Shown here: positions 2,190-56,090 of the stretch, one piece after another
Layout: each line of letters starts with the position of its first letter
Position numbering within the stretch: the first letter of the stretch is position 1
NCBI GenBank assembly: GCA_021513695.1
Contig: CP084166.1
Span: 3,017,794-3,081,793 of the forward strand
Length of the DNA: 64,000 nucleotides
Origin: Candidatus Heimdallarchaeum aukensis
Lineage (GTDB): Archaea > Asgardarchaeota > Heimdallarchaeia > Heimdallarchaeales > Heimdallarchaeaceae
Direction of reading: 5' to 3'
Position numbers and translations under genes: made by a program
The notes under the pieces: generated by a model
Told to the model about the DNA's origin: nothing
The model's input: only the letters and a program-made list of their open reading frames with translations
Database searches by the model: none

Positions 2190-3166
2190 TATTTACAAAT
2201 TATATCTTTTAGCTTCTTGAGCATCTTTATTCCGCGAATTTCTTGGTTGAAAGCTTCAACAGTAGTTACATCATGGTTTGGAAAAGCTTGTTTGATGTAC
2301 TCTAAATTAGCTAAATGCTCTTTTCTTCTATTCATACAGTAAGGACAACTTTTATTTTCTGGATTAATTTGATTGACAACTATTTCTTTATTCGGAATAT
2401 AATGTTCTTTTAATTCTTCAAATAGTCGTTCTGACTCAAAAATAGACATAAGTGTAGGAATTCCAACAATTATAAATTGTGTCTTTTCATCATCCATTAG
2501 TGTTTCTCTGGCTATAAGTATCTTCTCTTTTAATTTTTCTAAGTTCTCTATTGTTCTATCTTTTTCTACATTTCCGCCAAAAAGAGATTTAATCATTGCC
2601 ATTGTATTAGAAATGAAGGTTTTCATTTTCAACATTCTACCAATAAAAGAATCTAAAAATTCTGGAATGTTGAGTAATCTCAATGTATGTCCTGTGGGCG
2701 CAGTGTCAAGTACAATCGTGTCGAATTCTTCATTATCCGCATACTCAAGGATTTTAGCAAAAGATAGAGCTTCATCCATTCCTGGTGGAGGGATTGATTT
2801 TAGATCTTGATCTATTCCCTTCATTGCTTCCATTCCTGGAATAGACATCAAACTAGAGAATTGATCTGCATCAAAGGAATCTCCTAATGCTTTTGTTAGT
2901 TCATCTCCTGATGATTCTGGGTTGATTTCTAAAGCGTACAATTCTCCTTTTACACCTTTAACTTTAGTTACAGTTCCAGATGAAAAATCCAAATCAAAAG
3001 AATCTGAAATGCTGTGTGCAGGGTCTGTTGAAACAAGTAAAGTTTTTTTACCTTTTTCAGCTAAAGCAATAGAAATTGCAGAAGCTATAGAAGTTTTCCC
3101 TACTCCTCCTTTTCCCCCTACCAAAATGAACTTTAGGTCCTTCTCTAATAAATCCTTGATAGTCAT
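2189..3166 (-). CDS. ArsA/Get3-family ATPase (TRC40/Get3 homologue)
   Basis: Deviant Walker A GGKGGVGKT, the signature TDPAHS motif, and a CPYC pair near the C-terminus as in Get3 zinc-linked dimers. Confidence 0.8.
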   Translation of the reverse strand: MTIKDLLEKDLKFILVGGKGGVGKTSIASAISIALAEKGKKTLLVSTDPAHSISDSFDLDFSSGTVTKVKGVKGELYALEINPESSGDELTKALGDSFDADQFSSLMSIPGMEAMKGIDQDLKSIPPPGMDEALSFAKILEYADNEEFDTIVLDTAPTGHTLRLLNIPEFLDSFIGRMLKMKTFISNTMAMIKSLFGGNVEKDRTIENLEKLKEKILIARETLMDDEKTQFIIVGIPTLMSIFESERLFEELKEHYIPNKEIVVNQINPENKSCPYCMNRRKEHLANLEYIKQAFPNHDVTTVEAFNQEIRGIKMLKKLKDIICK

Positions 3167-3280
3167 TAATATAGAAAAAAATCGACTCTTATTTAAAGAT
3201 AAATATTAGTGATTAATAGAACTTTTAAGTAAAATAAAAAAAACTCTCGAAAAATAAAAATAGATAAAGAAAACAAATTT

Positions 3281-4045
3281 TTACTTTCTACGTTTTCTTT
3301 TCTTAATTTTTCTTTTTTGTTCTTGTTTTGTTTTATGTGGTTTTTTAACCAATGGGGAAATCTTTCTTGAACTTCTTCTTCGTTTATGAACTTTCTGTAT
3401 AGCGAATAAATCTACAATGATTATAGTAGTGAATACTCCAACGATACCCAAGACAAAATAGAATAAGTTTAACCATTTTTCCGAGTCTATAACTTCTACA
3501 TTTTCAGGTAATACGACATTTAACGAGTATCTTTGAGAATAAGACTTGTACATAACACTATTTTCATCATAGTATTTTATCTCTGTGGCTTCTAAGGTAA
3601 AGTTTCCTTCAAGTAAAGGTTGGATGTAATAAGTATAAACGAAGCTAGCATTTATTTCAACTTGTATATACTTTTGCTCTGTCAAATTAAAAGTTGAAAC
3701 TGCCCACTCTTCAAAGCTTGGTTCTGTAATAGAAAGATTATACGCTGTTCTGTTTCCAATATTGGTTATATTTAGGTCAATTCTAATCCATTGCAAAGGC
3801 TCAAGTTCAGTAACGTTAATTACCTTCTTTATAGCTAAAAGTGGTCTGCTAGGTAATGTATCATTAGTGTCATTTAATGCTAAATATGGTCGATAGTAAT
3901 TTCTCTCTGGTTCCTGAATTTTTTGAATCTGGTCATTGTTGTTTATTACACTGTTGGAACCACTAATAAATGATGAATTTACAGCTAAAACTAACATCAC
4001 AACTAATACAAATCGTAAATACTTTCTTCCGGGCATATGTTTCAT
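3281..4045 (-). CDS. secreted/membrane-anchored protein rich in N-glycosylation sequons, with a C-terminal TM helix and polybasic tail (hypothetical)
   Basis: N-terminal hydrophobic signal-like segment. More than 10 N-x-S/T sequons. C-terminal hydrophobic helix followed by a tail that includes KRRRSSRK and KRKIKKRKRRK. Confidence 0.5.
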   Translation of the reverse strand: MKHMPGRKYLRFVLVVMLVLAVNSSFISGSNSVINNNDQIQKIQEPERNYYRPYLALNDTNDTLPSRPLLAIKKVINVTELEPLQWIRIDLNITNIGNRTAYNLSITEPSFEEWAVSTFNLTEQKYIQVEINASFVYTYYIQPLLEGNFTLEATEIKYYDENSVMYKSYSQRYSLNVVLPENVEVIDSEKWLNLFYFVLGIVGVFTTIIIVDLFAIQKVHKRRRSSRKISPLVKKPHKTKQEQKRKIKKRKRRK

Positions 4046-4243
4046 TATCCTTTTATTGCTTATGGAGCATGAAATAATCTCGTTTAAATATTTTGCTCTT
4101 GGAACTAGAAATAAGCTAGCGCTTTATTTACTTATCGCCTATTTTTTTCCTTATATTTAGATGTTATTTTAAGAATTCTAGGTAACAATATTTTATGGTA
4201 AAAGAACATAGTAACAATTATAAAAAGGTGGATTTGTTTTAAA

Positions 4244-5143
4244 TTGAGAGCAATGACTGTTAAAATTCTATGTGATACTAGTGCAGATTTGAATCTTCCC
4301 ACTGATCAAACAATCTATGACAAATATAACATTGGAACTTTTCCCATGCATGTTATTTTTGGAACGAATGATTATAGAGAATTAGTTGACATAAAAACTT
4401 CTGAATTCAGGAAAAAGATCTATGAAACAGATGTTCATCCCACCACTTCTCAACCAACACAATTTGATATCTTAACACAATTTGAGAAGTTTGGAAAAGA
4501 CTACGATGAAATCATATCATTTCATATCTCATCAAAATTAAGTGGGAGCTATGCTAATGCAAAAATAGCTAAAAAAATGTATGAGAAATCAAATAAAGAA
4601 CATGCTAAAGTGTATTTAGTTGATAGTTTATTAGCTAGTTCAGCTTTTGGACTTGTAGTTATTAAAGCCGCTAAGTTAGCAGAAGAAGGTCTGTCTGGAC
4701 AAGAAATAGTTGATAAAATAAACGATTGGAAAAAAAATAATATAGTTGTTTATTTCACTGTAGAGAACTTAGAGTGGCTTTATCGCGGAGGTAGATTAAG
4801 TAAAACTAAGTACTATTTAGGTAGCATGTTAAACAAAAAACCAGTTTTAACATTAGTTGATGGAGAAATTGTGAGTGCAAAGACTGTTACAGGAATAGAA
4901 AAAACTTTTGATACTATAATTGACCTTGCCTTTAAACGCTTTCCAGAAGTTGAGCAGGAGAGAATAATGTACAATATTATCGAATTTGATTACAAAGATG
5001 TAGTAGATGATGTAATTCAGAAAACGAAAAACAAGTATCCTAATGCTAAAGAAGGAAAAGTGTTTGAAATGGGAGGAACAATTGCAGCTCATACTGGTCC
5101 AAAAACTCTAGGGTTTATTGTTACCAAAGATTTTGAATTTTAA
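4244..5143 (+). CDS. DegV-family fatty-acid-binding protein
   Basis: MTVKILCDTSADL N-terminus and a YRGGRLSK motif, length about 300 aa. Paralogous to the next two ORFs. Confidence 0.75.
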   Translation: MRAMTVKILCDTSADLNLPTDQTIYDKYNIGTFPMHVIFGTNDYRELVDIKTSEFRKKIYETDVHPTTSQPTQFDILTQFEKFGKDYDEIISFHISSKLSGSYANAKIAKKMYEKSNKEHAKVYLVDSLLASSAFGLVVIKAAKLAEEGLSGQEIVDKINDWKKNNIVVYFTVENLEWLYRGGRLSKTKYYLGSMLNKKPVLTLVDGEIVSAKTVTGIEKTFDTIIDLAFKRFPEVEQERIMYNIIEFDYKDVVDDVIQKTKNKYPNAKEGKVFEMGGTIAAHTGPKTLGFIVTKDFEF

Positions 5144-5210
5144 TTTCTTTTTTTTCTTTTCTTTTTTGGAAAAAGATTTATTCAACACATTTTAAGTTAG
5201 TTTGAAATAG

Positions 5211-6119
5211 ATGACAATAAAGATTTTGTGTGATACTTCAGCTGATCTTGTCTTACATCCAAATAAGCCACTGTATGACTCGCTAGGTGTTGGAATTCTT
5301 CCCATGAAAGTTTTTTTTGATGAGAATGATGTTTTTTTAGAGCAAAAAAATATTAGTAACATACAGTTTTATGAGTTAATAAGACTCTCCCAGACCCAAC
5401 CTAAAACCTCTCCTCCTTCAGCAGATGATATATTTAAAGAATTTCAAAGATATGGAAGAGAATATGATGAACTAATTTCTTTACATATTTCTAAAGATTT
5501 AAGTCATACATATTTTAACGCTGTTGAAGCAAAGAAGAGATACTTGAAAACTGAATCAAATCCAGCCAAAATAAATATAATTCATAGTGGTGTTGCAAGT
5601 TTAGCTCTGGGAAAACTTGTATTGAAAGCTGTTGAACTTAAAAATAAAGGTTTTGAAACTTCTGAAATTATAAAACAACTTTATTCTTGGAAAGAAAATA
5701 ATGTTAAAGCAGCTTTTACTGTTAGAGATTTAAATTGGTTATATGAAGGAGGAAGACTTACAAGGTCACAGAAAACAATAGGTACAATATTAAATAAAAA
5801 ACCTGTTCTTACTTTTGATCATGGAAAAATCAATGTAATTGGTTATTCAACAGGATTGGAAAGAACATTGAGATTTATGGTTAAATATCTCTTATCACAG
5901 ATGGAGGAGGAGAAAATAAACAAACTTACCTTGTCTTTTATCACAGCACAGAATTTTGGTTTAATAGATGACTTCTCAAGAGTAATAAAGAAAGAATTTC
6001 CGAAAATTAATTTAGGTCCTAAATTTGAGCTAGGTGCAACAATTACTAGCCATACAGGAATGGAGACAATAGGTTTTGTAATTTCAAGTAATCTTAAAAT
6101 AGATCCTTTAATAAAATAA
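5211..6119 (+). CDS. DegV-family fatty-acid-binding protein
   Basis: MTIKILCDTSADL N-terminus and a YEGGRLTRSQK motif. Tandem paralogue. Confidence 0.75.
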   Translation: MTIKILCDTSADLVLHPNKPLYDSLGVGILPMKVFFDENDVFLEQKNISNIQFYELIRLSQTQPKTSPPSADDIFKEFQRYGREYDELISLHISKDLSHTYFNAVEAKKRYLKTESNPAKINIIHSGVASLALGKLVLKAVELKNKGFETSEIIKQLYSWKENNVKAAFTVRDLNWLYEGGRLTRSQKTIGTILNKKPVLTFDHGKINVIGYSTGLERTLRFMVKYLLSQMEEEKINKLTLSFITAQNFGLIDDFSRVIKKEFPKINLGPKFELGATITSHTGMETIGFVISSNLKIDPLIK

Positions 6120-23199: not shown

Positions 23200-23329
23200 A
23201 TAATATAATCCTCTTTTTTTTTATTTTCTTTTTTTTGAAGTTTTTAAAGAATAATCAAATTAAGTTAGCACAAATAACAGCAAAGTTAAATATGACTACC
23301 TTTGAGAATAAAGTAAGATTGGTGAGATT

Positions 23330-24286
23330 ATGTCTGAGGATGAACAAAAAACTCAAGTTGAAGAAGAGAAAACTGAGGTAAAAGAAGAAAAAGAAGAAAC
23401 TCCCTTGGAAATGTACCAAAAAGCTGGAAAAGTAGCTCACGAAATTCTTCAAACACTTAAAGATATGGCTAAACCCGGAGTTAAAGCTCTAGATTTAAGT
23501 GAAAAAGCAGATGCAATGATAGCTGAAGCAGGAATGAAACCTGCATTTCCTCTAAATATAGCAATAAACAATCATGCTGCTCATTACACTTGTCCTTGGG
23601 AAGATGATTTGATTCTTCAAGAGGGAGATGTAGTAAAAATTGATGTTGGTGTTCATTATAAAGGTTTTATTGCAGATACAGCTTTAACTGTTGCTTTTGA
23701 TGATGTCCATAATGATTTAATTAAAGCAAGTAAAGAAGCAACTGAAACAGCCGTAAAAGTTATACGTGTAGGAAATTATACTGGTAAATTAGGAGATCTA
23801 ATTGAAAATATTATTGAAGGATACGGCTTCTCAACAGTAAAAGACTTGTCAGGCCATTTGCTTATGCCTTATCTTGTTCATGGTCCAAAAACTATTCCAA
23901 ATGTAAGTGGAAGAAAAGGTAACTTGATTTTACAAGATGAAGCTTATGCTATTGAAACCTTCGCAACAACAGGTGCAGGAGAATCAAAACCAGATAAAAC
24001 AAAGTTATATATTGTAAGGTTAGCAGAAGGAAGATTTCCACTAAGAACAAGAGCTGCAAAAGATGTTAGAAATCTTCTAGATAGAGAATATCATAGAATG
24101 CCTGTAGCAACAAGATGGATATATAAGGCCCTTGGTCCTGCTAAGGCAAAAATGGGTATTAGAGAATTAATTAATGTGGGAGCTTTATATCAATATCATG
24201 TGCTTTCTGATACTTCTGGATCTTTTGTATCACAGCATGAGCATACAGTTTACATGACAGAAGAAGGGCCAGTACAAACTACATAA
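23330..24286 (+). CDS. map: methionine aminopeptidase type 2-like protein (copy 1)
   Basis: Pita-bread fold motifs carrying the MetAP2 metal ligands: KIDVGVH, ADTALT, GHLL, AIETF. The acidic/lysine-rich N-terminal extension is reminiscent of eukaryotic MetAP2 and PA2G4. A GGTGA ribosome-binding site lies 5 nt upstream. Confidence 0.7.
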   Translation: MSEDEQKTQVEEEKTEVKEEKEETPLEMYQKAGKVAHEILQTLKDMAKPGVKALDLSEKADAMIAEAGMKPAFPLNIAINNHAAHYTCPWEDDLILQEGDVVKIDVGVHYKGFIADTALTVAFDDVHNDLIKASKEATETAVKVIRVGNYTGKLGDLIENIIEGYGFSTVKDLSGHLLMPYLVHGPKTIPNVSGRKGNLILQDEAYAIETFATTGAGESKPDKTKLYIVRLAEGRFPLRTRAAKDVRNLLDREYHRMPVATRWIYKALGPAKAKMGIRELINVGALYQYHVLSDTSGSFVSQHEHTVYMTEEGPVQTT

Positions 24287-24416
24287 TCCTTTTTTTATTT
24301 TACTGTTTATTTTTTGTTTTGAGAATAGTAATTTTGTATTTTCATTTAAAAAAATCATTTTTTAAGAACAATAAATCTTTAATATTGAAAAGTTGTAAAT
24401 GAATGTGTTGATATAA

Positions 24417-25639
24417 TTGACTTTACAGACAAGTGAATTCAAATTTATAATGTATGAACCATGTTTTAATAATTACGATATTGTGTATAACGAATATATG
24501 CTGGCTTATGAAGAATTTAAGAAACTAGGAGAAGAGATGTCAATTTTCGCGTTCTCTCTTACTTCTATGAAGGAATGCTCTATCTTATTAATGGTGACAA
24601 ATTCTTTTCTCAGAAGGAATACAAAAAAGCAAATGAAAACTATGAAGAAGCACAAAAATTAATTACTCGCTCTAGAGCATCAAGAGGAATTGAAAAAGAT
24701 ACTATCTGGCAAGAAATGGTTAAATGGATAGCATATTGCGAATCTTATACTAATCTTTCCAAGAGTTATTTAGTCAAAGATTTCTCAGAAAAAATTGAAC
24801 TATTAAAGAAAAGCAAGGCAGCAATTAAAGATTTTGTAGAAAAAAGGAAATATGATGAAAACATCATCTTGGATATCTATGCAAAAGCTAAAGAAAATTA
24901 TATCAAGTACATTTATTACATAAATTTAGCTCAAAAATATGAGAAAAACACAAGAATGCAGAAAAAAATACTCCTTAAAGCGAGAAGAAAGCTACTTTTA
25001 GCTCACTTTATTCTTAATCACTATGAAGAAGAAATAGATGATTTAGACTTTAAAATTGATGAGCTAACAAAGACACACATAGTTGAAAGAGCAGAAATGT
25101 ACTGGAACAAGGGAACTTTACTAATTTCTCAAAGTGACTTTATGAGTGCACACAAATATCTTCTTCTAGCTTCTCAGTACTATGAACGAGCAAGCAAAAT
25201 ATGTTCAGAATTTATTGAATTAAGATTATATTTAGCTCTTAGTAAAATAACAGAAAGTAGCGGTCTTGAAGCAAAAGCTAATGAACTTTACAGAAGGCAG
25301 GACAAGCCCCTAGAAGCCAGTAAACTGTTTGAAGAAGCATATGAAGTTGTAGACGAATCCCTCGGTTTACTAGCTACAATTCACAATGAAGTGTTAATAA
25401 ACAATATGACTGCACAAAGATCTTATTATGAAGCTTTAGCACTCGAAGCAAAAGGTATATCCCTCTTTGACGAAGAGAAATATAAAGAATCTATAGAAAT
25501 TTTTGAACAATCAATGCAAAAATTAGAAGAAACAGAACGCTTAGTAGTCGAAGGTAGTTCAGAGCATTTACAAGAGTACATTCGCTTAGCTAAGAATGAG
25601 ATTGAAGGTTATTTATCTATGGCAAAAACTATGCTTTAG
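24417..25639 (+). pseudogene. TPR-like helical-repeat protein gene, frameshifted (copy 1)
   Basis: Two overlapping ORFs (24417..24662 and 24575..25639) together equal the intact 407-aa ORF of copy 2. Copy 1 lacks one A in the GAGAA run near 24537. Confidence 0.6.
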
Positions 25640-25697
25640 TATCAAATTTTTCTTCAATCAATAATCTTTATTTATCACAATATAAACAATAAATGCA

Positions 25698-26393
25698 ATG
25701 CTGTTTGACGATTTTGAAATAAAGGAGTACTTGGAAAATTTTTTCTCAAAGAATCTATCTGCCAAAGATTATCCTGAACCCGACACTGATCTCGATCATA
25801 AATTAGTTTGGAATTACAGTGAAAATGGAGATGCTTTTTCAGTACTTCTTGATCCAATAAATGATGCTTACGAATACTTTGGAGTTACTGTAGGTGAGAT
25901 ATTTGCTCACCATCGATTCAAACCAATTGTTTGGCACTTGTATCTTTTTGGCAATAAAATAAAGAGCTTTGAATGGATTAAATTAAAAGATGGAACTGAT
26001 TATCTTATTAATGTTGGGACTTACTCTTTTATTTCTTATATCTACGATTTTAAAAGTGGGAAAAGGTTATACAGAAACCCAATAGAAGAGATAAAATCTC
26101 AAATATATTCACTTAACCTCAAGTATGATATATCTGTAAATGATGTAAATGAATTTGTAGAATATTCTTTTATTGAAGACTACAGGTGGGGAGAAGTTTC
26201 GAGAAACGCTATAATAGCTCTTATACTAGATAATTTCAATAAAGATAAAATAAATGTTAATGTTCTAGGATTAATTAATCGTGTTTTACACGAATATTCT
26301 AATTACGAATCAGACAAACAACTACTAGAAAGAGTGAAAAAAGGAGAATCACCTTTTGAACTAGGGACTATCTTTTATAACGATTTTATATAA
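25698..26393 (+). CDS. hypothetical protein (copy 1)
   Basis: 231-aa ORF, duplicated identically at 30554..31249. Confidence 0.4.
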   Translation: MLFDDFEIKEYLENFFSKNLSAKDYPEPDTDLDHKLVWNYSENGDAFSVLLDPINDAYEYFGVTVGEIFAHHRFKPIVWHLYLFGNKIKSFEWIKLKDGTDYLINVGTYSFISYIYDFKSGKRLYRNPIEEIKSQIYSLNLKYDISVNDVNEFVEYSFIEDYRWGEVSRNAIIALILDNFNKDKINVNVLGLINRVLHEYSNYESDKQLLERVKKGESPFELGTIFYNDFI

Positions 26394-26406
26394 AAAGAGA
26401 AAAAAT

Positions 26407-26706
26407 TTAACTCATTTTAAATTCTACACCGAATCCTCCATGAGGATAGTGCCAATCAACACTTCCGTGAGGACAAACAAGCCTACATGTTCCACATTCA
26501 ACACAAGGTGCATAATCAAACGTTACAGGTACATCTCCATCTTCAACTAGTTTATAACATTCTGCAGGGCAACCATATACACAGTCATATGTCTTACATT
26601 TAGTTTTGCATATCTCCTCGTTTATGGTAATGTGAGCAAAATTTTTGTCTGTAACATACTTTGTTAATGCAAGTTTTTCTTCAATTTTTATTGGATTTTC
26701 TACCAT
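26407..26706 (-). CDS. fixX: ferredoxin-like protein FixX (copy 1)
   Basis: 99 aa. A CVECGTCRLVCP cluster. Immediately downstream of fixC. Confidence 0.75.
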   Translation of the reverse strand: MVENPIKIEEKLALTKYVTDKNFAHITINEEICKTKCKTYDCVYGCPAECYKLVEDGDVPVTFDYAPCVECGTCRLVCPHGSVDWHYPHGGFGVEFKMS

Positions 26707-26718
26707 TCTTTTCTCCTC

Positions 26719-28032
26719 CTAAATAGATCTTAAAGCAGCAAAAGCATCTCCCATGAGCTTAAACAGCTTACCTTTCTTTAGGAAGTGCTTAATAGCTGTA
26801 GGAACAATTCTTTTTCTAGGCTCTCCAGTGTTGTGTAAAAGTTGATACATCAAAGAATTAAGCAGTTCTGGATAAACATTGAAAATTCTCTCTCTCTCCA
26901 AGAACTTTGCAGCTCGTTTAAATCTCTTCAAATCTTGCAAAACAAAACTATCTCGCAATAATTTCAAATAAATCTTTGTTCCTTCTGCAGAATAATCATT
27001 TGTTGTTAAAGCTTCTTTTGCTGCTAACCCTGCTAGTCTTCCAGACTCTAAAGCAAAATTCATACCTTCTATGTACAAACCTGCGTTAAGAACCATACCA
27101 GCAGCATCACCAGCAATCATCACACCGTTCCCATATAACTTAGGCATGTGTTTGTATCCCCCTTCAGGAATAGCGTGAGCAGAGTATTCAACCATTTTAG
27201 CATCTTTAAGGAGCTTTTGGATGTAGGGGTGTTTCTTAAAATCTTCAAAAGCATCAATCGCTCTGATCTTTTTTTGTATAAGTTTTTTCATGTTTAAGAT
27301 CAATCCAAAAGAAAGTGTTTCTTTATTTGTATAGAAGAATCCTCCTCCTGGAATTCCATGAGTATAACCTAGAAACTCGTTACTTATTCCTTCATTTCCA
27401 TTAAGATGAAATCTCTCTTCAATTATTTCTTTCTTTAATTCATATGTTTCTTTCATTCCTACAGCGTAGTGTGAAGGTGAAGGCTTTTTAGCAAGTTTAG
27501 CTTTTTCTGCTAATAAAGTAACAGCTCCTTCAGCAATTATAGTGAGTTTAGCTTTTAATTCATCTTCTCCAGATTCTATTCCTATAATTTGATTATCCTT
27601 CCAAATGAAATCTTCAGCTACAGTGTTGTCGAGAATAAAAGCTCCTGCTTCTTCTGCTTTTTGGGCCAACCATCTGTCAAATTTTGGACGAATAACAGTT
27701 ACACCATTGTAAGGTGGTTCGGCAAAATCTTGTAAATCAATATCAATAGTCATTGCTCGCTTTTCAGACAAAAGAGTAATCTTTTTAGTTGTTAAATATC
27801 TCTCAATAGCATCTTCTTCCCAATAGTTAGGAACGATTTTATTTAGTACTGGGCCGTAAAGAGCTCCTCCACTTACATTTTTTGCACCAGGATACTGTCC
27901 TCTTTCAATAATAGCAACCTCTTTTCCTTCCTTTGCTAAAGTTAATGCTGCAGAAGAACCAGCTAGTCCAGCTCCAACTATAATTACATCAAAATCGTAT
28001 TCTACAGTCATAAAAAAATGTTTGATTTTCAA
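26719..28032 (-). CDS. fixC: FAD-dependent oxidoreductase FixC (ETF-quinone oxidoreductase-like), copy 1
   Basis: DVIIVGAGLAGSSAAL Rossmann motif, length 437 aa, adjacent to fixX. Confidence 0.8.
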   Translation of the reverse strand: MKIKHFFMTVEYDFDVIIVGAGLAGSSAALTLAKEGKEVAIIERGQYPGAKNVSGGALYGPVLNKIVPNYWEEDAIERYLTTKKITLLSEKRAMTIDIDLQDFAEPPYNGVTVIRPKFDRWLAQKAEEAGAFILDNTVAEDFIWKDNQIIGIESGEDELKAKLTIIAEGAVTLLAEKAKLAKKPSPSHYAVGMKETYELKKEIIEERFHLNGNEGISNEFLGYTHGIPGGGFFYTNKETLSFGLILNMKKLIQKKIRAIDAFEDFKKHPYIQKLLKDAKMVEYSAHAIPEGGYKHMPKLYGNGVMIAGDAAGMVLNAGLYIEGMNFALESGRLAGLAAKEALTTNDYSAEGTKIYLKLLRDSFVLQDLKRFKRAAKFLERERIFNVYPELLNSLMYQLLHNTGEPRKRIVPTAIKHFLKKGKLFKLMGDAFAALRSI

Positions 28033-28184
28033 TATAAAATGTTTATGTGAAAATATAAAAAAGAAAATAGAAAAGAATGAAAAATTATTTTATCTTTTTT
28101 AAAGAATAATCAAATTAAGTTAGCACAAATAACAGCAAAGTTAAATATGACTACCTTTGAGAATAAAGTAAGATTGGTGAGATT

Positions 28185-29141
28185 ATGTCTGAGGATGAAC
28201 AAAAAACTCAAGTTGAAGAAGAGAAAACTGAGGTAAAAGAAGAAAAAGAAGAAACTCCCTTGGAAATGTACCAAAAAGCTGGAAAAGTAGCTCACGAAAT
28301 TCTTCAAACACTTAAAGATATGGCTAAACCCGGAGTTAAAGCTCTAGATTTAAGTGAAAAAGCAGATGCAATGATAGCTGAAGCAGGAATGAAACCTGCA
28401 TTTCCTCTAAATATAGCAATAAACAATCATGCTGCTCATTACACTTGTCCTTGGGAAGATGATTTGATTCTTCAAGAGGGAGATGTAGTAAAAATTGATG
28501 TTGGTGTTCATTATAAAGGTTTTATTGCAGATACAGCTTTAACTGTTGCTTTTGATGATGTCCATAATGATTTAATTAAAGCAAGTAAAGAAGCAACTGA
28601 AACAGCCGTAAAAGTTATACGTGTAGGAAATTATACTGGTAAATTAGGAGATCTAATTGAAAATATTATTGAAGGATACGGCTTCTCAACAGTAAAAGAC
28701 TTGTCAGGCCATTTGCTTATGCCTTATCTTGTTCATGGTCCAAAAACTATTCCAAATGTAAGTGGAAGAAAAGGTAACTTGATTTTACAAGATGAAGCTT
28801 ATGCTATTGAAACCTTCGCAACAACAGGTGCAGGAGAATCAAAACCAGATAAAACAAAGTTATATATTGTAAGGTTAGCAGAAGGAAGATTTCCACTAAG
28901 AACAAGAGCTGCAAAAGATGTTAGAAATCTTCTAGATAGAGAATATCATAGAATGCCTGTAGCAACAAGATGGATATATAAGGCCCTTGGTCCTGCTAAG
29001 GCAAAAATGGGTATTAGAGAATTAATTAATGTGGGAGCTTTATATCAATATCATGTGCTTTCTGATACTTCTGGATCTTTTGTATCACAGCATGAGCATA
29101 CAGTTTACATGACAGAAGAAGGGCCAGTACAAACTACATAA
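28185..29141 (+). CDS. map: methionine aminopeptidase type 2-like protein (copy 2)
   Basis: Identical to 23330..24286. Confidence 0.7.
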   Translation: MSEDEQKTQVEEEKTEVKEEKEETPLEMYQKAGKVAHEILQTLKDMAKPGVKALDLSEKADAMIAEAGMKPAFPLNIAINNHAAHYTCPWEDDLILQEGDVVKIDVGVHYKGFIADTALTVAFDDVHNDLIKASKEATETAVKVIRVGNYTGKLGDLIENIIEGYGFSTVKDLSGHLLMPYLVHGPKTIPNVSGRKGNLILQDEAYAIETFATTGAGESKPDKTKLYIVRLAEGRFPLRTRAAKDVRNLLDREYHRMPVATRWIYKALGPAKAKMGIRELINVGALYQYHVLSDTSGSFVSQHEHTVYMTEEGPVQTT

Positions 29142-29271
29142 TCCTTTTTTTATTTTACTGTTTATTTTTTGTTTTGAGAATAGTAATTTTGTATTTTCAT
29201 TTAAAAAAATCATTTTTTAAGAACAATAAATCTTTAATATTGAAAAGTTGTAAATGAATGTGTTGATATAA

Positions 29272-30495
29272 TTGACTTTACAGACAAGTGAATTCAAATT
29301 TATAATGTATGAACCATGTTTTAATAATTACGATATTGTGTATAACGAATATATGCTGGCTTATGAAGAATTTAAGAAACTAGGAGAAGAGAATGTCAAT
29401 TTTCGCGTTCTCTCTTACTTCTATGAAGGAATGCTCTATCTTATTAATGGTGACAAATTCTTTTCTCAGAAGGAATACAAAAAAGCAAATGAAAACTATG
29501 AAGAAGCACAAAAATTAATTACTCGCTCTAGAGCATCAAGAGGAATTGAAAAAGATACTATCTGGCAAGAAATGGTTAAATGGATAGCATATTGCGAATC
29601 TTATACTAATCTTTCCAAGAGTTATTTAGTCAAAGATTTCTCAGAAAAAATTGAACTATTAAAGAAAAGCAAGGCAGCAATTAAAGATTTTGTAGAAAAA
29701 AGGAAATATGATGAAAACATCATCTTGGATATCTATGCAAAAGCTAAAGAAAATTATATCAAGTACATTTATTACATAAATTTAGCTCAAAAATATGAGA
29801 AAAACACAAGAATGCAGAAAAAAATACTCCTTAAAGCGAGAAGAAAGCTACTTTTAGCTCACTTTATTCTTAATCACTATGAAGAAGAAATAGATGATTT
29901 AGACTTTAAAATTGATGAGCTAACAAAGACACACATAGTTGAAAGAGCAGAAATGTACTGGAACAAGGGAACTTTACTAATTTCTCAAAGTGACTTTATG
30001 AGTGCACACAAATATCTTCTTCTAGCTTCTCAGTACTATGAACGAGCAAGCAAAATATGTTCAGAATTTATTGAATTAAGATTATATTTAGCTCTTAGTA
30101 AAATAACAGAAAGTAGCGGTCTTGAAGCAAAAGCTAATGAACTTTACAGAAGGCAGGACAAGCCCCTAGAAGCCAGTAAACTGTTTGAAGAAGCATATGA
30201 AGTTGTAGACGAATCCCTCGGTTTACTAGCTACAATTCACAATGAAGTGTTAATAAACAATATGACTGCACAAAGATCTTATTATGAAGCTTTAGCACTC
30301 GAAGCAAAAGGTATATCCCTCTTTGACGAAGAGAAATATAAAGAATCTATAGAAATTTTTGAACAATCAATGCAAAAATTAGAAGAAACAGAACGCTTAG
30401 TAGTCGAAGGTAGTTCAGAGCATTTACAAGAGTACATTCGCTTAGCTAAGAATGAGATTGAAGGTTATTTATCTATGGCAAAAACTATGCTTTAG
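29272..30495 (+). CDS. TPR-like helical-repeat protein (intact copy)
   Basis: 407-aa all-helical ORF with repeated hydrophobic/aromatic heptad-like patterns (e.g. YEEAQKLI, YERASKIC, YYEALALEAKG). Confidence 0.5.
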   Translation: MTLQTSEFKFIMYEPCFNNYDIVYNEYMLAYEEFKKLGEENVNFRVLSYFYEGMLYLINGDKFFSQKEYKKANENYEEAQKLITRSRASRGIEKDTIWQEMVKWIAYCESYTNLSKSYLVKDFSEKIELLKKSKAAIKDFVEKRKYDENIILDIYAKAKENYIKYIYYINLAQKYEKNTRMQKKILLKARRKLLLAHFILNHYEEEIDDLDFKIDELTKTHIVERAEMYWNKGTLLISQSDFMSAHKYLLLASQYYERASKICSEFIELRLYLALSKITESSGLEAKANELYRRQDKPLEASKLFEEAYEVVDESLGLLATIHNEVLINNMTAQRSYYEALALEAKGISLFDEEKYKESIEIFEQSMQKLEETERLVVEGSSEHLQEYIRLAKNEIEGYLSMAKTML

Positions 30496-30553
30496 TATCA
30501 AATTTTTCTTCAATCAATAATCTTTATTTATCACAATATAAACAATAAATGCA

Positions 30554-31249
30554 ATGCTGTTTGACGATTTTGAAATAAAGGAGTACTTGGAAAATTTTTT
30601 CTCAAAGAATCTATCTGCCAAAGATTATCCTGAACCCGACACTGATCTCGATCATAAATTAGTTTGGAATTACAGTGAAAATGGAGATGCTTTTTCAGTA
30701 CTTCTTGATCCAATAAATGATGCTTACGAATACTTTGGAGTTACTGTAGGTGAGATATTTGCTCACCATCGATTCAAACCAATTGTTTGGCACTTGTATC
30801 TTTTTGGCAATAAAATAAAGAGCTTTGAATGGATTAAATTAAAAGATGGAACTGATTATCTTATTAATGTTGGGACTTACTCTTTTATTTCTTATATCTA
30901 CGATTTTAAAAGTGGGAAAAGGTTATACAGAAACCCAATAGAAGAGATAAAATCTCAAATATATTCACTTAACCTCAAGTATGATATATCTGTAAATGAT
31001 GTAAATGAATTTGTAGAATATTCTTTTATTGAAGACTACAGGTGGGGAGAAGTTTCGAGAAACGCTATAATAGCTCTTATACTAGATAATTTCAATAAAG
31101 ATAAAATAAATGTTAATGTTCTAGGATTAATTAATCGTGTTTTACACGAATATTCTAATTACGAATCAGACAAACAACTACTAGAAAGAGTGAAAAAAGG
31201 AGAATCACCTTTTGAACTAGGGACTATCTTTTATAACGATTTTATATAA
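30554..31249 (+). CDS. hypothetical protein (copy 2)
   Basis: Identical to 25698..26393. Confidence 0.4.
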   Translation: MLFDDFEIKEYLENFFSKNLSAKDYPEPDTDLDHKLVWNYSENGDAFSVLLDPINDAYEYFGVTVGEIFAHHRFKPIVWHLYLFGNKIKSFEWIKLKDGTDYLINVGTYSFISYIYDFKSGKRLYRNPIEEIKSQIYSLNLKYDISVNDVNEFVEYSFIEDYRWGEVSRNAIIALILDNFNKDKINVNVLGLINRVLHEYSNYESDKQLLERVKKGESPFELGTIFYNDFI

Positions 31250-31262
31250 AAAGAGAAAAAAT

Positions 31263-31562
31263 TTAACTCATTTTAAATTCTACACCGAATCCTCCATGAG
31301 GATAGTGCCAATCAACACTTCCGTGAGGACAAACAAGCCTACATGTTCCACATTCAACACAAGGTGCATAATCAAACGTTACAGGTACATCTCCATCTTC
31401 AACTAGTTTATAACATTCTGCAGGGCAACCATATACACAGTCATATGTCTTACATTTAGTTTTGCATATCTCCTCGTTTATGGTAATGTGAGCAAAATTT
31501 TTGTCTGTAACATACTTTGTTAATGCAAGTTTTTCTTCAATTTTTATTGGATTTTCTACCAT
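31263..31562 (-). CDS. fixX: ferredoxin-like protein FixX (copy 2)
   Basis: Identical to copy 1. Confidence 0.75.
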   Translation of the reverse strand: MVENPIKIEEKLALTKYVTDKNFAHITINEEICKTKCKTYDCVYGCPAECYKLVEDGDVPVTFDYAPCVECGTCRLVCPHGSVDWHYPHGGFGVEFKMS

Positions 31563-31574
31563 TCTTTTCTCCTC

Positions 31575-32888
31575 CTAAATAGATCTTAAAGCAGCAAAAG
31601 CATCTCCCATGAGCTTAAACAGCTTACCTTTCTTTAGGAAGTGCTTAATAGCTGTAGGAACAATTCTTTTTCTAGGCTCTCCAGTGTTGTGTAAAAGTTG
31701 ATACATCAAAGAATTAAGCAGTTCTGGATAAACATTGAAAATTCTCTCTCTCTCCAAGAACTTTGCAGCTCGTTTAAATCTCTTCAAATCTTGCAAAACA
31801 AAACTATCTCGCAATAATTTCAAATAAATCTTTGTTCCTTCTGCAGAATAATCATTTGTTGTTAAAGCTTCTTTTGCTGCTAACCCTGCTAGTCTTCCAG
31901 ACTCTAAAGCAAAATTCATACCTTCTATGTACAAACCTGCGTTAAGAACCATACCAGCAGCATCACCAGCAATCATCACACCGTTCCCATATAACTTAGG
32001 CATGTGTTTGTATCCCCCTTCAGGAATAGCGTGAGCAGAGTATTCAACCATTTTAGCATCTTTAAGGAGCTTTTGGATGTAGGGGTGTTTCTTAAAATCT
32101 TCAAAAGCATCAATCGCTCTGATCTTTTTTTGTATAAGTTTTTTCATGTTTAAGATCAATCCAAAAGAAAGTGTTTCTTTATTTGTATAGAAGAATCCTC
32201 CTCCTGGAATTCCATGAGTATAACCTAGAAACTCGTTACTTATTCCTTCATTTCCATTAAGATGAAATCTCTCTTCAATTATTTCTTTCTTTAATTCATA
32301 TGTTTCTTTCATTCCTACAGCGTAGTGTGAAGGTGAAGGCTTTTTAGCAAGTTTAGCTTTTTCTGCTAATAAAGTAACAGCTCCTTCAGCAATTATAGTG
32401 AGTTTAGCTTTTAATTCATCTTCTCCAGATTCTATTCCTATAATTTGATTATCCTTCCAAATGAAATCTTCAGCTACAGTGTTGTCGAGAATAAAAGCTC
32501 CTGCTTCTTCTGCTTTTTGGGCCAACCATCTGTCAAATTTTGGACGAATAACAGTTACACCATTGTAAGGTGGTTCGGCAAAATCTTGTAAATCAATATC
32601 AATAGTCATTGCTCGCTTTTCAGACAAAAGAGTAATCTTTTTAGTTGTTAAATATCTCTCAATAGCATCTTCTTCCCAATAGTTAGGAACGATTTTATTT
32701 AGTACTGGGCCGTAAAGAGCTCCTCCACTTACATTTTTTGCACCAGGATACTGTCCTCTTTCAATAATAGCAACCTCTTTTCCTTCCTTTGCTAAAGTTA
32801 ATGCTGCAGAAGAACCAGCTAGTCCAGCTCCAACTATAATTACATCAAAATCGTATTCTACAGTCATAAAAAAATGTTTGATTTTCAA
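31575..32888 (-). CDS. fixC: FAD-dependent oxidoreductase FixC, copy 2 (contiguous with etfBA)
   Basis: Identical to copy 1. Directly downstream of etfA. Confidence 0.8.
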   Translation of the reverse strand: MKIKHFFMTVEYDFDVIIVGAGLAGSSAALTLAKEGKEVAIIERGQYPGAKNVSGGALYGPVLNKIVPNYWEEDAIERYLTTKKITLLSEKRAMTIDIDLQDFAEPPYNGVTVIRPKFDRWLAQKAEEAGAFILDNTVAEDFIWKDNQIIGIESGEDELKAKLTIIAEGAVTLLAEKAKLAKKPSPSHYAVGMKETYELKKEIIEERFHLNGNEGISNEFLGYTHGIPGGGFFYTNKETLSFGLILNMKKLIQKKIRAIDAFEDFKKHPYIQKLLKDAKMVEYSAHAIPEGGYKHMPKLYGNGVMIAGDAAGMVLNAGLYIEGMNFALESGRLAGLAAKEALTTNDYSAEGTKIYLKLLRDSFVLQDLKRFKRAAKFLERERIFNVYPELLNSLMYQLLHNTGEPRKRIVPTAIKHFLKKGKLFKLMGDAFAALRSI

Positions 32889-32940
32889 TATAAAATGTTT
32901 ATGTGAAAATATAAAAAAGAAAATAGAAAAGAATGAAAAA

Positions 32941-51272: not shown

Positions 51273-52124
51273 ATGATTCATTTAGTAGCTTTTCAGAATC
51301 TTGACAGTGGTATAGGTTATCCTATTTACAGCGACGATACAATAAATGTCAGTTTAGAATTAATCTTTCCCATGATTAGTGCTTTGAACAACTTTGTAGA
51401 AGAATGTACAAATGATGAACGAGGATTAGTCAATGCTGCTCTAGAAGATGTAAAGATTTTTTTGTATGCCCCTGAAGGCGAAGAGAACCCACTGAGATAT
51501 GTTTTTTTTACAGATATATTCGATGATAATCTCTATTTAAGTTATAAGGCAGTAGAAATACACAAACATCTTTCTCCTTATATAAAATATGATTATTTTT
51601 CAATACCTGAGGAAAAAGCAAAGAAAATCACAGAAATTATCACCTTTACGCACGAATTCCCTAGAAAAGAATTATCCAATTATTTCTTGAGTGAGGTAGA
51701 GAATAAGATAAAGAGTTATGAGAAAAATAAAGAAGTCTTCTTTGGAGATCTCTTTATTGGAGATCTGGACCAAGGGATTGTTTTGTCTTTCTTTGAGAAT
51801 GATGAAATTAAAGAGAAACCGAGTAAAGAGTTGTTTTCAGAATTAATTCAAACTTTCACCTTTCTTGAAAACGATTTATGGGCAAATTCTTCTATTAACG
51901 AAATAGAAAAAGATAAGCTTTCTAAATATGTAGAAAACCCTGATAAATTCAGAGAAGGCTGGTTTCTTTCTCAACTTGCTAGTTATAATAAGAGTGACTT
52001 TTGGTTAGTAGGTTATTTTGTCTACAGGACTGATATGGAACAAGAAGTAAAGGAGTTCTTATATTCACTATCAGAAAAAATTACTTCTATTATTTCTCCT
52101 TTTATAACCAAAAGAAAATTCTAA
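51273..52124 (+). CDS. hypothetical protein
   Basis: 283-aa ORF immediately upstream of lonB. No family recognised. Confidence 0.35.
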   Translation: MIHLVAFQNLDSGIGYPIYSDDTINVSLELIFPMISALNNFVEECTNDERGLVNAALEDVKIFLYAPEGEENPLRYVFFTDIFDDNLYLSYKAVEIHKHLSPYIKYDYFSIPEEKAKKITEIITFTHEFPRKELSNYFLSEVENKIKSYEKNKEVFFGDLFIGDLDQGIVLSFFENDEIKEKPSKELFSELIQTFTFLENDLWANSSINEIEKDKLSKYVENPDKFREGWFLSQLASYNKSDFWLVGYFVYRTDMEQEVKEFLYSLSEKITSIISPFITKRKF

Positions 52125-52254: not shown

Positions 52255-55200
52255 ATGACTAAAGATAGAAAAGAGACCGACATTTCTAAATTCAATAATG
52301 ATGATACAAAAAATAAAAGTGGAAAGGAGCAAGTATTAGAAAAAGAAGAACCTCTTTTAGATATTTCATTCAATGATACTTCAGAAATATCTGTTCCTCC
52401 GAGACTAATTGATCAAGTGATAGGTCAAGATGAAGCTGTTGAAATAATAAAAAAGGCTGCTTTGCAAAAAAGGCATGTCATGCTCATTGGGGATCCTGGA
52501 ACAGGAAAGAGTATGTTAGGTCAAGCAATGGCAGAGCTTTTACCCAAAGAAGATCTTGTAGATATTCTTTGTTTACCTAATCCTAAATACCCAAATCAAC
52601 CTAGAATTGCTACTCTTCCAGCAGGGCATGGAACAAGAAAAGTTCAGATGGATACAGAGTTGGCTCGAAAGAAGGGTAATAAGAGATTTGTGGTTTCTTT
52701 ATTCATTTTAATTGCTATAATTGGTTACGCTATTATTGCTACATCCTCTAGACCTGATTTACAACCTCAAACTCTTTTAATGGCAATGTTTGTAGGGTTC
52801 TTCATATTCTTCATGCTCAATCAATCCAGATCAAGACCAGAAGCACTAATACCAAAATTATTAGTTGATAATAGTAATAGCAAAAGAGCACCATTCAATG
52901 ATGCAACAGGAAGCCACGCAGGAGCCTTACTTGGCGATGTACGTCACGATCCGTTTCAAAGCTTTTTAAGCGGAAATATTAAGATTTTTGAAGGAAATGG
53001 TCTGACTGAAGTCAACATTAAGGAATATGCAGATAAGCTATTTGAAAAGTATAGCAACAGGATTGTAAAAGACAAATCCAACAATTATGAAGCCATTTTT
53101 CTAGAAAAACCTATTAGAGTGATTGGTGAAGAAAAAGGACAATTAATTTCTGCTGATGTTTTATCTGTTAATAGGTATGAATATAGTGATTATGCAGTAG
53201 AAATAGAGATAGAAAATGGCAAAAAAGTAGCTGTTACACCTGAACATCGGATATTCGTACAAAATGAGAACGGATATATGATCGAAAAACCTGCAATGAA
53301 ATTAAAAAAAGGAGAAAGAATAGTGTCTATTGATAATGAGATTATTATTGATGGAGAAGATATTGCATCTACATTTGGCGAAAATGATCTAAAACAGTAT
53401 CTTCTCTATAAAAGATTTTTAGAAGTTAGAAAACTTCATCCTACGTGGGGATATAAGCGAATTTCCAAGTTTTTAGGAGAAAAAAGCAGTAAAACAAGAT
53501 GGTGGTATGAAGAAAAGCATATACCTAAAGCTCAAAGAACTATAAATTGGCTTGAAAATAAAGGATTACTTCCATTAAAAATTAGTAATTCTAAATTACT
53601 TTTGATTGCCAAAGTTTTGGGTGCTTTATTTGGTGATGGAGGAATATTTGAAAACTTAAATGGCATATTTTTATCAAGTTCAGAATTAGAATCTGTCAAG
53701 GAATTTCAATCCGACATTGAGAAAATTTTTGATTTAGATGAAAATGAGTTTGGAAGGATTATTGAAGGTGGTGAAAAAGGTCATTCTTGGTGCTACCAAA
53801 ACACTAACCGAGCCATAGTTAGATTTTTTTTGGCACTTGGTGCTCCAAAGGGTAAAAAAACTGAACAACCTTTGTATGTTCCAGCTTGGATTTATACTGA
53901 TGATGCAGTTGAAGAAGAGTTCTTTAGTTCATTTTTAGGAAGTGAGATAGGAGTACCCAAGGTACACATTTCTGGTATAAGGCTACAAACATTTGATCTA
54001 GCAATCACTGGAAAAAAAGAACTGTCTAAGAACAGACTAGAATTTTTGAATCAAGTTATACAATTCTTGGAAAAAAGGGGCGTAAAATGCAATAATGTAC
54101 GAGTCTACGATACTCCCAACAAGAGGTATTACAAATACAGATTATTCATATCTACACAATTTTCAAATGTGTATCAGTTTTCTAAAGAAATTAAATTAAA
54201 TTACTGTCGGTATAAAGGTGAAAAATTAAGCAAAACCATCAATGCTTTTGGAAAGATAAAAAAACAGCGTTATGAAGCGTTAATTGATAAAGGTTATAGT
54301 GCTGAAAAAGCGATGAACAAACTTAAATTAAGCCAGAGAGGATTATATATTATACTTTCGGAGGAATGGTAACTATGAGGTTTAAAACAGAAAAAATAGA
54401 GAACATTAAAATTAAAAAAGTTAAGGAAAAGGCTTACAATTTTACAACTACTACAGGTAATCTTATAGTCTCTGATATTCTCTGTTCTAACTCTGGTGGG
54501 TTAGGAACTCCTCCTCATGAAAGAGTAGAAGCTGGATTAATTCATAAATCTCATAATGGTGTATTATATATTGATGAGATTGGTACTTTAAAGATACAAA
54601 CCCAACAAAAACTTCTTACAGCAATGCAAGATGGAAAGCTATCAATTACTGGTCAATCAGAGTTAAGTTCTGGTGCAATGGTTCGTTCTGAGCCTGTTCC
54701 TTGTAGATTTGTTTTAGTCGCTGCAGGAAATATTGAAACTACACGTAATATGCATCCAGCTCTTCGCTCTCGTATTCAAGGTTCTGGTTATGAAATTTAT
54801 ATGAAAGACACTATGCCAGACACAATTCAAAATAGACGTAAATTAGCACGTTTTGTAGCTCAAGAAGTATCTAAAGATAAAAAGATTCCTCATTTTAGTA
54901 AAGAAGCTGTAGAAGAAATCATTTATGAAGCACAGAGAAGAGCAGACAGAAAGGGTTACTTAACTCTTCGTCTTCGAGAACTTGGAGGATTAATTCGTGC
55001 TGCTGGAGATCTAGCTAAAGAGAGAAAAGAGGAAATAGTTTCTGCTGAAACTGTAAGATTAGCAAAAACCTTCGCTAGAACTTTAGAGAACCAAATAAGC
55101 GATAGTTACGCTGATCAAAGAAAACAATATAAGATAATAGAAATAGAGGGAGAGAGAGTGGGAAGAGTAAATGGACTGGCAGTAATTAACCAACGTTCTG

Positions 55201-55757
55201 GAATAGTAATGCCAATAGAAGCAGAAGTTGTTCCTGCATTTAGTCAAAGAGAAGGAAAAATTGTGGCAACAGGGCAACTAAGAATAATAGCTAGAGAAGC
55301 AGTTCAAAATGTTTCTGCTATTCTAAAGAAATTTATAGGAAAAGATATCTCAAACTTTGATTATCACATTCAATTTGTAGGTGCATATAGTGGAGTAGAA
55401 GGAGATTCTGCATCCATTTCGATAGCTACTGCAGTTATTTCAGCTTCTGAAAAAGTTCCCGTTAGACAAGATACAGCAATGACTGGAAGTCTAACAGTCA
55501 GAGGAGTCGTAATCCCAGTTGGTGGAGTAACAAGTAAAATTGAGGCCGCGGCAGAAGCTGGAATAAAAAGAGTGATTATACCCAAACAGAATTTGGGTGA
55601 CGTAAAAGTTGAGAAAAAATACGCAGATAAAGTCGAGATTATCCCCGTGGAACATTTTAGCGAAGTTCTTAGAGCTGCTTTTCCCCCAGAATATGAATAT
55701 GTCGCTAAAAAATATGAAACTTTGAATAAAGAAAAGCCAATCAATGGTTTAAATTAA
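52255..55757 (+). CDS. lonB: archaeal membrane-bound Lon protease (LonB) interrupted by an intein; the reading frame is broken by an apparent -1 frameshift inside the intein
   Basis: N-extein: Walker A GDPGTGKS, two TM helices, and ...[14 protein letters not shown]-extein: [15 protein letters not shown], Walker B VLYIDEI, and the protease Ser in GDSASIS. The two ORFs (52255..54372 and 54366..55757) overlap in different frames. Confidence 0.7.
52960..54491 (+). other. LonB intein with a LAGLIDADG homing-endonuclease domain (1532 nt, not a multiple of 3)
   Basis: Begins with Ser (SFLSGNIKI, block A-like). Block [18 protein letters not shown]-type motif [14 protein letters not shown]. The C-terminal splicing block [20 protein letters not shown] is followed by the extein SGG. 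The frame shifts between 54327 and 54372. Confidence 0.7.
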
Positions 55758-55760
55758 CCT

Positions 55761-56090
55761 GTGAGGAAAATGAGTTCTGCGGGTTACTTTTTTTATTTAT
55801 GTTCTATCACAGTAAAGCCAAATGATGAAGAACAGTATGAAGACTTTAATGAATTTGATATGCATTTACATTTGGTGCAAGAAGAGTTAGAAAAGAAAGA
55901 ACCCTCTCGAGACCCCTATTTAGAAACAACTTTTTTTCTCCCCGATTGGGTAGAGATGAATTTTAAGTTCAAAAGTTCTTACAAAGATGGTGATGAAGAC
56001 ATCTACATGTATATTGATCTAGTAAAAGAAGAGATTGAAAGTGACCTCAATGTTACAATTGTAGATTTTGGAATCGAAGGTGTTGTCTGA
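55761..56090 (+). CDS. hypothetical acidic protein
   Basis: 109-aa ORF directly after lonB. Confidence 0.3.
   Translation: MRKMSSAGYFFYLCSITVKPNDEEQYEDFNEFDMHLHLVQEELEKKEPSRDPYLETTFFLPDWVEMNFKFKSSYKDGDEDIYMYIDLVKEEIESDLNVTIVDFGIEGVV

Follow-up and report, generated by a model that had tools for sequence, protein, structure and literature searches.

The split inteins of cyanobacterial DnaE and of Nanoarchaeum PolB are mini-inteins that lack an endonuclease, whose halves are encoded far apart and whose nucleophiles are Cys residues. Split inteins have been defined as split mini-inteins (PMC4760082). In the arrangement that Dassa, London, Stoddard, Schueler-Furman and Pietrokovski described in 2009 as fractured genes, a free-standing GIY-YIG or Vsr-like endonuclease lies between the halves of a split intein (PMC2677866). 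Those loci came from metagenomic DNA and were mainly phage-derived in appearance; the model proposed for them includes fusion of an endonuclease into the intein as a step, and gene fracturing by LAGLIDADG endonucleases was suggested but not observed (PMC2677866). The studied contiguous intein of LonB is that of Pyrococcus abyssi Lon, as cited in PMC4031507. Here we describe the lonB locus of Candidatus Heimdallarchaeum aukensis, contained in a 64,000-nucleotide (nt) stretch of contig CP084166.1 (positions 3,017,794 to 3,081,793 of the forward strand; hereafter, the window, whose own numbering is used below). We consider it very probable, from the sequence of this locus and its relatives, that lonB in the window is a naturally split gene whose products are joined by a trans-splicing split intein. 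This Heimdall-type archaeon, like many DPANN archaea, encodes Lon as two adjacent genes, which an endonuclease-bearing split intein most likely joins.

The locus consists of two open reading frames (ORFs), both on the plus strand, as are all features described below. ORF1 (52255..54372) encodes 705 amino acids (aa) and runs from the LonB N-extein, which ends in ...GDVRHDPFQ, straight into an intein that begins SFLSGN.... The N-extein (52255..52959, 235 codons) contains the Walker A motif and two transmembrane helices. ORF2 lies in the -1 frame relative to ORF1, ends with the stop codon at 55757 and encodes the intein C-part (54375..54491, 39 codons, with blocks F and G) followed by the LonB C-extein with Walker B, LID and the Lon_C protease domain (54492..55757, including the stop). 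These extein limits were set from the ORFs, Pfam and an alignment of the virtually spliced protein, and the C-part from relatives and gene calls. Pfam recognized Intein_splicing and AAA motifs in ORF1, and LonB_AAA-LID and Lon_C in ORF2. When the exteins were joined in silico, the resulting protein of 656 aa could be aligned over 95-97% of its length with ordinary intein-free LonB proteins of Heimdallarchaeaceae (638-667 aa), the identity being 79-82%.

The intein DNA (52960..54491) measures 1,532 nt, that is, 511 codons minus 1 nt. It interrupts lonB between HDPFQ and SGGLG, with Ser as residue 1 (52960-62), Ser-Asn as the last two residues (terminal Asn at 54489-91) and Ser at position +1. 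An earlier note on this DNA had read the gene in the same way, as a lonB carrying a LAGLIDADG intein of 1,532 nt between HDPFQ and SGGLG, with Ser1, an Asn end that lacks the penultimate His, and two reading frames that meet where there is no homopolymer run; all of this was borne out by the ORFs, Pfam, motifs and fold, and the unusual ends proved common to the relatives. The note further held that the frame switches between 54327 and 54372. The interval is right, since the ORF2 frame is closed upstream by a TAA at 54324-26 and the ORF1 frame by the TAA at 54370-72, which confines any frame change to these positions, but what lies there is a conserved stop/start gene boundary and not an internal frameshift. 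Likewise, its statement that LonB could not be made by ordinary translation plus splicing holds for cis-splicing of a single product and left a split, trans-splicing intein out of consideration.

By direct reading, the longest homopolymer between 54327 and 54372 is TTT, and no slippery heptamer of the X XXY YYZ type occurs in this interval. The break is a stop/start junction. An ATG at 54366, which may serve as an alternative start for ORF2, overlaps the ORF1 stop (ATGGTAA), and a second in-frame ATG is found at 54375, two bases past that stop. Initiation at 54375 gives a C-part of 39 aa, the length found in 66 of 73 distinct relatives, and other gene callers chose the same start in protein P0148 (460 aa) and in locus L006. 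A Shine-Dalgarno-like GGAGG (54360..54364, by direct reading) is located within the ORF1 tail, 10 nt 5' of this ATG. Two independent Joint Genome Institute (JGI) assemblies, L006 and L007, are 99% identical to the window and carry the identical junction, which is thus present in three assemblies in all. In the window (54300-54369) and its relatives, ORF1 ends in 3-15 residues that vary but are rich in Glu, Gly and Ala (..SEEW, ..GPKEEATA, ..NEEEIA), a composition compatible with the presence, within the coding tail of ORF1, of a purine-rich ribosome-binding sequence that serves ORF2.

To place the junction among relatives, we used the intein without its exteins, its N-part joined to its C-part, as the query against 5.8 billion proteins and examined the best 120 matches. 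All were N-extein plus N-part proteins, the complete ones of ~675-760 aa with a few fragments besides, and they covered ~83-93% of the query (75% for one fragment); a contiguous intein was not found among these 120. The top match was 99% identical to the query, the next, a fragment, 79%, and the rest 43-52%, and the named sources included Woesearchaeota, Nanoarchaeota and Heimdallarchaeaceae. All 115 full-length relatives stopped 3-15 residues past the same motif, ..GYGAExAMxxLNLTPxSLYxxLN, so that the TAA at 54370..54372 represents a conserved end of the first polypeptide. In loci L001-L004, the next ORF encodes the C-extein of LonB fused behind a short C-part of the intein, and its start codon overlaps the stop of ORF1 or adjoins it (ATGA in L001-L003, TAATG in L004). 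In a library clustered at 50% identity, members of the family fall together into 27 representatives at an expectation (E) value of ≤1e-30, a count that underestimates family size.

A scan of one genome per GTDB species added 80 loci, for a total of 88 including the window. According to their record titles, the added loci belong to Woesearchaeota, Nanoarchaeota or Nanoarchaeia, Iainarchaeum, Parvarchaeota and Micrarchaeota, and one, L014, comes from the complete genome of Ca. Heimdallarchaeum endolithica PR6 (CP084167.1). The name "Uncultured Methanosarcinales" borne by many loci is a submitters' label on which nothing here rests. The distance from the ORF1 stop to the ORF2 start was -20, -11, -10, -7, -4 (the commonest), -1, +1, +3 or between +21 and +434 nt, and junctions occurred in all three relative frames. 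Among the distinct sequences, the C-part was exactly 39 aa long in 66/73 and started with ATG in 71/73, and a stop codon was present at most 73 codons upstream of the C-part in 71/73. No frameshift, error or recoding signal on its own explains junctions of such varied spacing in all three frames. The conserved trait is the presence of two predicted polypeptides, and we regard it as practically certain that the two-ORF state is genuine and selected.

We then considered the residues on which splicing would depend. Residue 1 was Cys in 52, Ser in 35 and Thr in 28 of the 115 relatives. Thr93 (53236-38) and His96 (53245-47) of block B (TPEH, 53236-47) were invariant in alignments of 18 and 45 sequences, and the terminal Asn and the +1 Ser were invariant in all 73 distinct C-parts. 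The N-terminal splicing lobe (52960..53334, ~125 codons), delimited by its conserved residues and by profile matches to solved inteins, matched the Mja KlbA intein (2jmz, E value of 6e-12) and PI-PkoII. This lobe resembles solved inteins by profile as well as by fold, and a complete Hint fold would need the C-part in trans. The exteins had ratios of nonsynonymous to synonymous substitution rates (dN/dS) of 0.02-0.13, and the intein modules had ratios of 0.04-0.35. Among moderately diverged pairs, the ratio was 0.145 in the N-part, 0.085 in the endonuclease and 0.036 in the C-part between L023 and L027, and ranged from 0.08 to 0.34 between L004 and L002. The intein modules are under purifying selection.

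A mechanism can be proposed on this basis. ORF1 and ORF2 probably share one mRNA and are translationally coupled, with initiation of ORF2 tied to termination of ORF1, because the stop and start codons abut and GGAGG precedes the latter. The 39-aa C-part would dock on the N-part and complete the Hint fold, after which class 1 splicing could proceed through an N-O acyl shift at Ser1, attack by Ser+1 and cyclization of the terminal Asn. The products would be a normal 656-aa LonB and a released, endonuclease-bearing intein, and the cassette would be able to home into intein-free lonB alleles.

Several points weigh against this reading. We infer trans-splicing from conservation, and the N-part of 470 aa with its endonuclease is unlike those of characterized natural split inteins. 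A Shine-Dalgarno-like motif precedes the ORF2 start in only 37/71 loci, compared with 17% at random positions in the same loci, and the mechanism of coupling is uncertain. The penultimate residue, commonly an assisting His, was Lys in 50, Ser in 12, Ala in 2 and Arg in 1 of the 65 split C-parts of 39 aa, and never His; block F has YN instead of the usual YD, and no obvious F:13 His was seen in the C-parts. Charge complementarity between the halves is typical of several natural split inteins and is absent here, the C-parts having a mean charge of +4.6 and the first 125 aa of the N-parts one of about -0.8. Finally, the check for a second lonB covered the 64-kb window, in which none was found elsewhere. 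As relatives never have the penultimate His, the ...CSN end of the window is a family trait and not damage. Splicing by inteins without this residue is documented, to judge by the references listed in PMC4031507, and its absence therefore does not disqualify a class 1 intein. The YN of block F also occurs in P0160, a canonical contiguous LonB intein.

The most serious alternative, although an improbable one, is that the two LonB halves form a non-covalent, two-subunit protease in which the intein halves merely dock, splicing having been lost. Loss of splicing would agree with the missing penultimate His and with the lack of the usual Asp and His of block F; DPANN archaea are known to have broken genes with products that simply associate, according to background cited in PMC2677866, and splicing is so far inferred. 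Yet docking alone needs neither a nucleophile at residue 1, nor a terminal Asn, nor the Thr and His of block B. Residue 1 varies and nevertheless does so only among Cys, Ser and Thr (115/115), the Asn is kept in 73/73, and the block B pair is invariant in the sampled alignments, all of which a non-covalent assembly leaves unexplained. Furthermore, the break falls in the conserved HDPFQ/SGGLGTP core of the AAA+ module (the slash marks the insertion site), where an unspliced complex would keep an insert of 509 aa.

Trans-splicing of two separate products also accounts better for the junctions than a programmed -1 frameshift, or another recoding event, that would fuse ORF1 and ORF2 into a single cis-splicing precursor. 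Recoding had been among the possibilities raised by the earlier note, and it would suit the -1 frame of ORF2 and its overlap with, or proximity to, ORF1 in the window and most relatives. However, neither a slippery heptamer nor a homopolymer is available between 54327 and 54372, relatives use all three frames, their junctions spanning -20 to +434 nt with gaps of 21-434 nt among them, and whole genes separate the parts in some relatives. In addition, the C-part almost always opens with its own conserved ATG at a fixed distance of 39 aa from the splice site. We hold recoding to be very unlikely.

The note had also suggested a recent inactivation of lonB, which would make the locus a pseudogene with a decaying intein. 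Pseudogenes are usually recognized by a frame break within the gene, and one relative, L048, does look decayed. In that locus (4359-5100), ORF1 is followed by a 165-aa ORF, the C-part is truncated past ..SSGNLIVNGI, and the C-extein lacks its first ~20 residues and shows a frame change; L048 may be a pseudogene or reflect an assembly error. Against inactivation, the window and the great majority of related loci have both ORFs intact, dN/dS lies between 0.02 and 0.35 in every module, and the position of the break is shared by lineages whose inteins are only 43-52% identical. Decay of lonB in the window is therefore hardly to be expected. A one-base sequencing or assembly error in a contiguous 511-codon intein, the remaining proposal, would explain an intein length one base below a multiple of three and has contiguous relatives for precedent (L082, L085, P0247), but these are only 35-42% identical to the intein of the window, the same junction recurs in independent assemblies (L006, L007), and the break is kept in 71/73 distinct loci from different species, so that an error is scarcely credible.

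We classified the 88 loci by the frames and stops found between their modules. Fifty-nine were two-ORF loci like the window, 16 had three ORFs, 2 were contiguous and 11 were incomplete. In the three-ORF loci, the first ORF stops ~100 aa into the intein N-part, a free-standing LAGLIDADG endonuclease is encoded by an ORF of ~360 aa, and the third ORF comprises the C-part and the C-extein. In L078, for instance, the three ORFs (2374-3360, 3357-4436 and 4427-5782) each overlap the next. Five of the three-ORF loci contain unrelated genes between the parts of the split lonB: ~2 kb separates the N-part from the endonuclease in L065, L071 and L080, the stretch in L065 (1025-2960) holding two genes, and C5-methyltransferase-like and Vsr-like genes lie between the endonuclease and the third ORF in L060 (4636-6810). 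An unrelated insertion was noted between the parts of the split lonB in L063 (3134-4228). The halves in such gene-inserted loci are beginning to drift apart.

The contiguous loci L082 and L085 are single ORFs of ~1,100 aa with a homologous intein that is 35-37% identical to that of the window (tblastn), begins with Thr1 and ends in ...NNVLAAN/SGGLGTP. An exhaustive search of 1.84 billion proteins added further contiguous relatives, P0247 (1,159 aa, 42%), P0255, P0258 and P0264, as well as many free-standing proteins of ~330-400 aa homologous to the endonuclease domain. Another Heimdall-type LonB, P0160, has a canonical contiguous intein at HDPFQ/SGGL, with Cys1 and the end ..FLVHN/SGGLETP.

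Some relatives carry, besides the split intein at HDPFQ/SGGLG, a second, canonical contiguous intein in the Walker A loop of LonB (GEPGTGK/CVGKD...VVHN/SMLG...). This intein has Cys1, a His-Asn end and its own LAGLIDADG domain, and was seen in L044 (865-3000), L062 (481-2900), L025 (1-2000) and also in L018 / P0241. A single lonB can thus host a cis-splicing and a split intein together.

The endonuclease of the window is fused in frame to the intein N-part. It occupies, with a C-terminal helical tail, positions 53335..54369 (345 aa) and was assigned from motifs, AlphaFold and Foldseek. The AlphaFold model of the 470-aa N-part, that is, splicing lobe plus endonuclease, had a mean confidence (pLDDT) of 87.8. 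Foldseek matched it to the endonuclease-bearing inteins TliVMA, PI-PfuI, PI-PkoII and PhoVMA (E values of 1e-9 to 1e-11) and to the LAGLIDADG enzymes I-DmoI (target-normalized template modeling score of 0.68-0.72) and I-Tsp061I. The acidic residues of both LAGLIDADG motifs, the Asp of ...LGALFGDGG (53635-37) and the Glu of ...FLGSEIG (53944-46), were invariant in the 18- and 45-sequence alignments. No Pfam LAGLIDADG family matched the region, even at E values up to 10, so that the assignment rests on motifs and fold. The endonuclease domain is divergent, and we predict that it is active.

Comparison of closely related loci gave indications of mobility. The window and the syntenic locus L004 were ~90% identical (blastn) over 5.5 kb up to an end point exactly at 52959, the last base of the N-extein. 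Inside the intein, identity fell to 67% over one alignment of 631 columns (53342-53960), and beyond that, from 54442 through the end of the window, it was back at 89%. At the protein level, the N-exteins were 97% and the inteins 46% identical. The comparison of L004 with L002 gave the opposite result, with exteins at 77-80% nucleotide identity (synonymous divergence, dS, of 1.9-3.6) and intein modules at 87-88% (dS of 0.39-0.60); L004 and L014 showed the same tendency as L004 and L002 (dS of 0.07-0.23 in the exteins and 0.01-0.03 in the intein). In a neighbor-joining tree, the window intein grouped with P0003-5 (96% bootstrap), while the extein of the window was nearest to that of P0047. Intein-free lonB alleles exist in close relatives, the gene for P0121 being an example.

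This conflict between intein and extein divergence, together with the intein-free alleles in close relatives, indicates that the cassette moved recently. Such a footprint is expected if the entire two-ORF cassette was replaced, by homing or between alleles, and its replacement is possible because the endonuclease and both halves adjoin one another in the DNA. The divergence data point to recent movement among Heimdall-type lineages and support homing indirectly. A recent exchange between DPANN and Heimdall-type archaea was considered and rejected: the six Heimdall-type inteins form one clade in the neighbor-joining tree (76% bootstrap) and are only ~45-50% identical to the DPANN inteins. Given this single clade, transfer between the two groups looks old and not ongoing, and exchange is supported only within the Heimdall-type lineages. 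The split loci number at least 75 out of 88, and most of these belong to GTDB species representatives. We lean slightly toward the view that the intein is an active homing element though split, that every proposed stage of gene breaking has been kept at one site, and that these loci make up a large family of natural split inteins from uncultured archaea.

The neighborhood of lonB is syntenic among Heimdall-type contigs (window positions 51273-52124 and 55761-56090 with flanks, and L004, L005 and L006). The syntenic block includes an upstream ORF of 283 aa and a conserved downstream ORF of ~106 aa, both with no Pfam match on record, as well as radical-SAM genes. Elsewhere in the window, positions 23230-32940 contain a tandem direct duplication with a unit of ~4.86 kb. 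Sampled 300-nt segments of the two copies (24537-24836 versus 29393-29692 and 23230-23529 versus 28085-28384) were 98-100% identical, and the duplication repeats sets of ORFs, such as those of 231 and 437 aa at 25698-28032, found again at 30554-32888. Either a recent event or an artifact of assembly could account for this repeat.

Among the membrane-bound proteases of archaea, LonB is a main one. In annotation pipelines, its two ORFs receive the names "ATP-binding protein," "hypothetical protein" or partial LonB, and the break may be taken for an error or a pseudogene, in which case LonB would be wrongly scored as broken in Woesearchaeota, Nanoarchaeota, other DPANN groups and Heimdallarchaeaceae. 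For intein biology, the locus offers an endonuclease kept on the N-part under purifying selection, in a cassette with signs of recent lateral replacement. The contiguous, two-ORF, three-ORF and dispersed forms found at one site correspond to the intermediates postulated by the 2009 model of fractured genes; if this reading is true, the origin of split inteins would become directly testable. Natural split inteins with Ser or Thr nucleophiles instead of Cys would then also be available. Efficient cysteine-less split inteins are reported to be rare (PMC11923092, PMC12707363), and for this reason split inteins with Ser1 or Thr1, Ser+1 and a C-part of 39 aa would be of interest for engineering. Many of the C-parts contain a non-catalytic Cys.

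A full-text search of literature that lacks most subscription papers turned up no account of inteins in Heimdallarchaeum, of a split intein that bears an endonuclease or of a split intein in LonB. The best structural matches to the modeled N-part and endonuclease, TliVMA (7qsu), PI-PfuI (1dq3) and PI-PkoII (2cw7), are all contiguous, unlike the intein of the window, and only 16-19% identical to it in sequence. The P0160 intein shares the insertion site HDPFQ/SGGL, and its C-terminal splicing region, ..YLYNLTTTTSNYIVNNFLVHN, resembles the C-part of the window; it differs in being a single ORF with Cys1, a His-Asn end and another LAGLIDADG region (motif ..LADILADGYIG). With the Ssp and Npu DnaE and Nanoarchaeum equitans PolB split inteins, the window shares an intein in two polypeptides that would rebuild an essential enzyme, a short C-part (~35-40 aa) and a break at the site of endonuclease insertion. 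Unlike in those systems, the halves are adjacent, the N-part keeps an endonuclease of 345 aa and the nucleophiles are Ser1 and Ser+1. The endonuclease on the N-part places the window outside the definition of split inteins as split mini-inteins and is the main departure from the known ones.

The fractured genes resemble the window in other respects. In both, the host gene is broken at the intein, its halves are kept in one locus and one orientation, the break lies in the region where the intein would receive its endonuclease, and overlapping coding regions suggest coupled expression. The 16 three-ORF relatives of the window (for example, L078 and L059) match the exact layout of a fractured gene with a free-standing endonuclease. 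In contrast to fractured genes, the endonuclease of the window is of the LAGLIDADG type and is fused in frame to the N-part, hence the single break. The gene that hosts it is the lonB of a cellular archaeon, and the family to which the window belongs spans many species and also comprises contiguous and gene-inserted forms.

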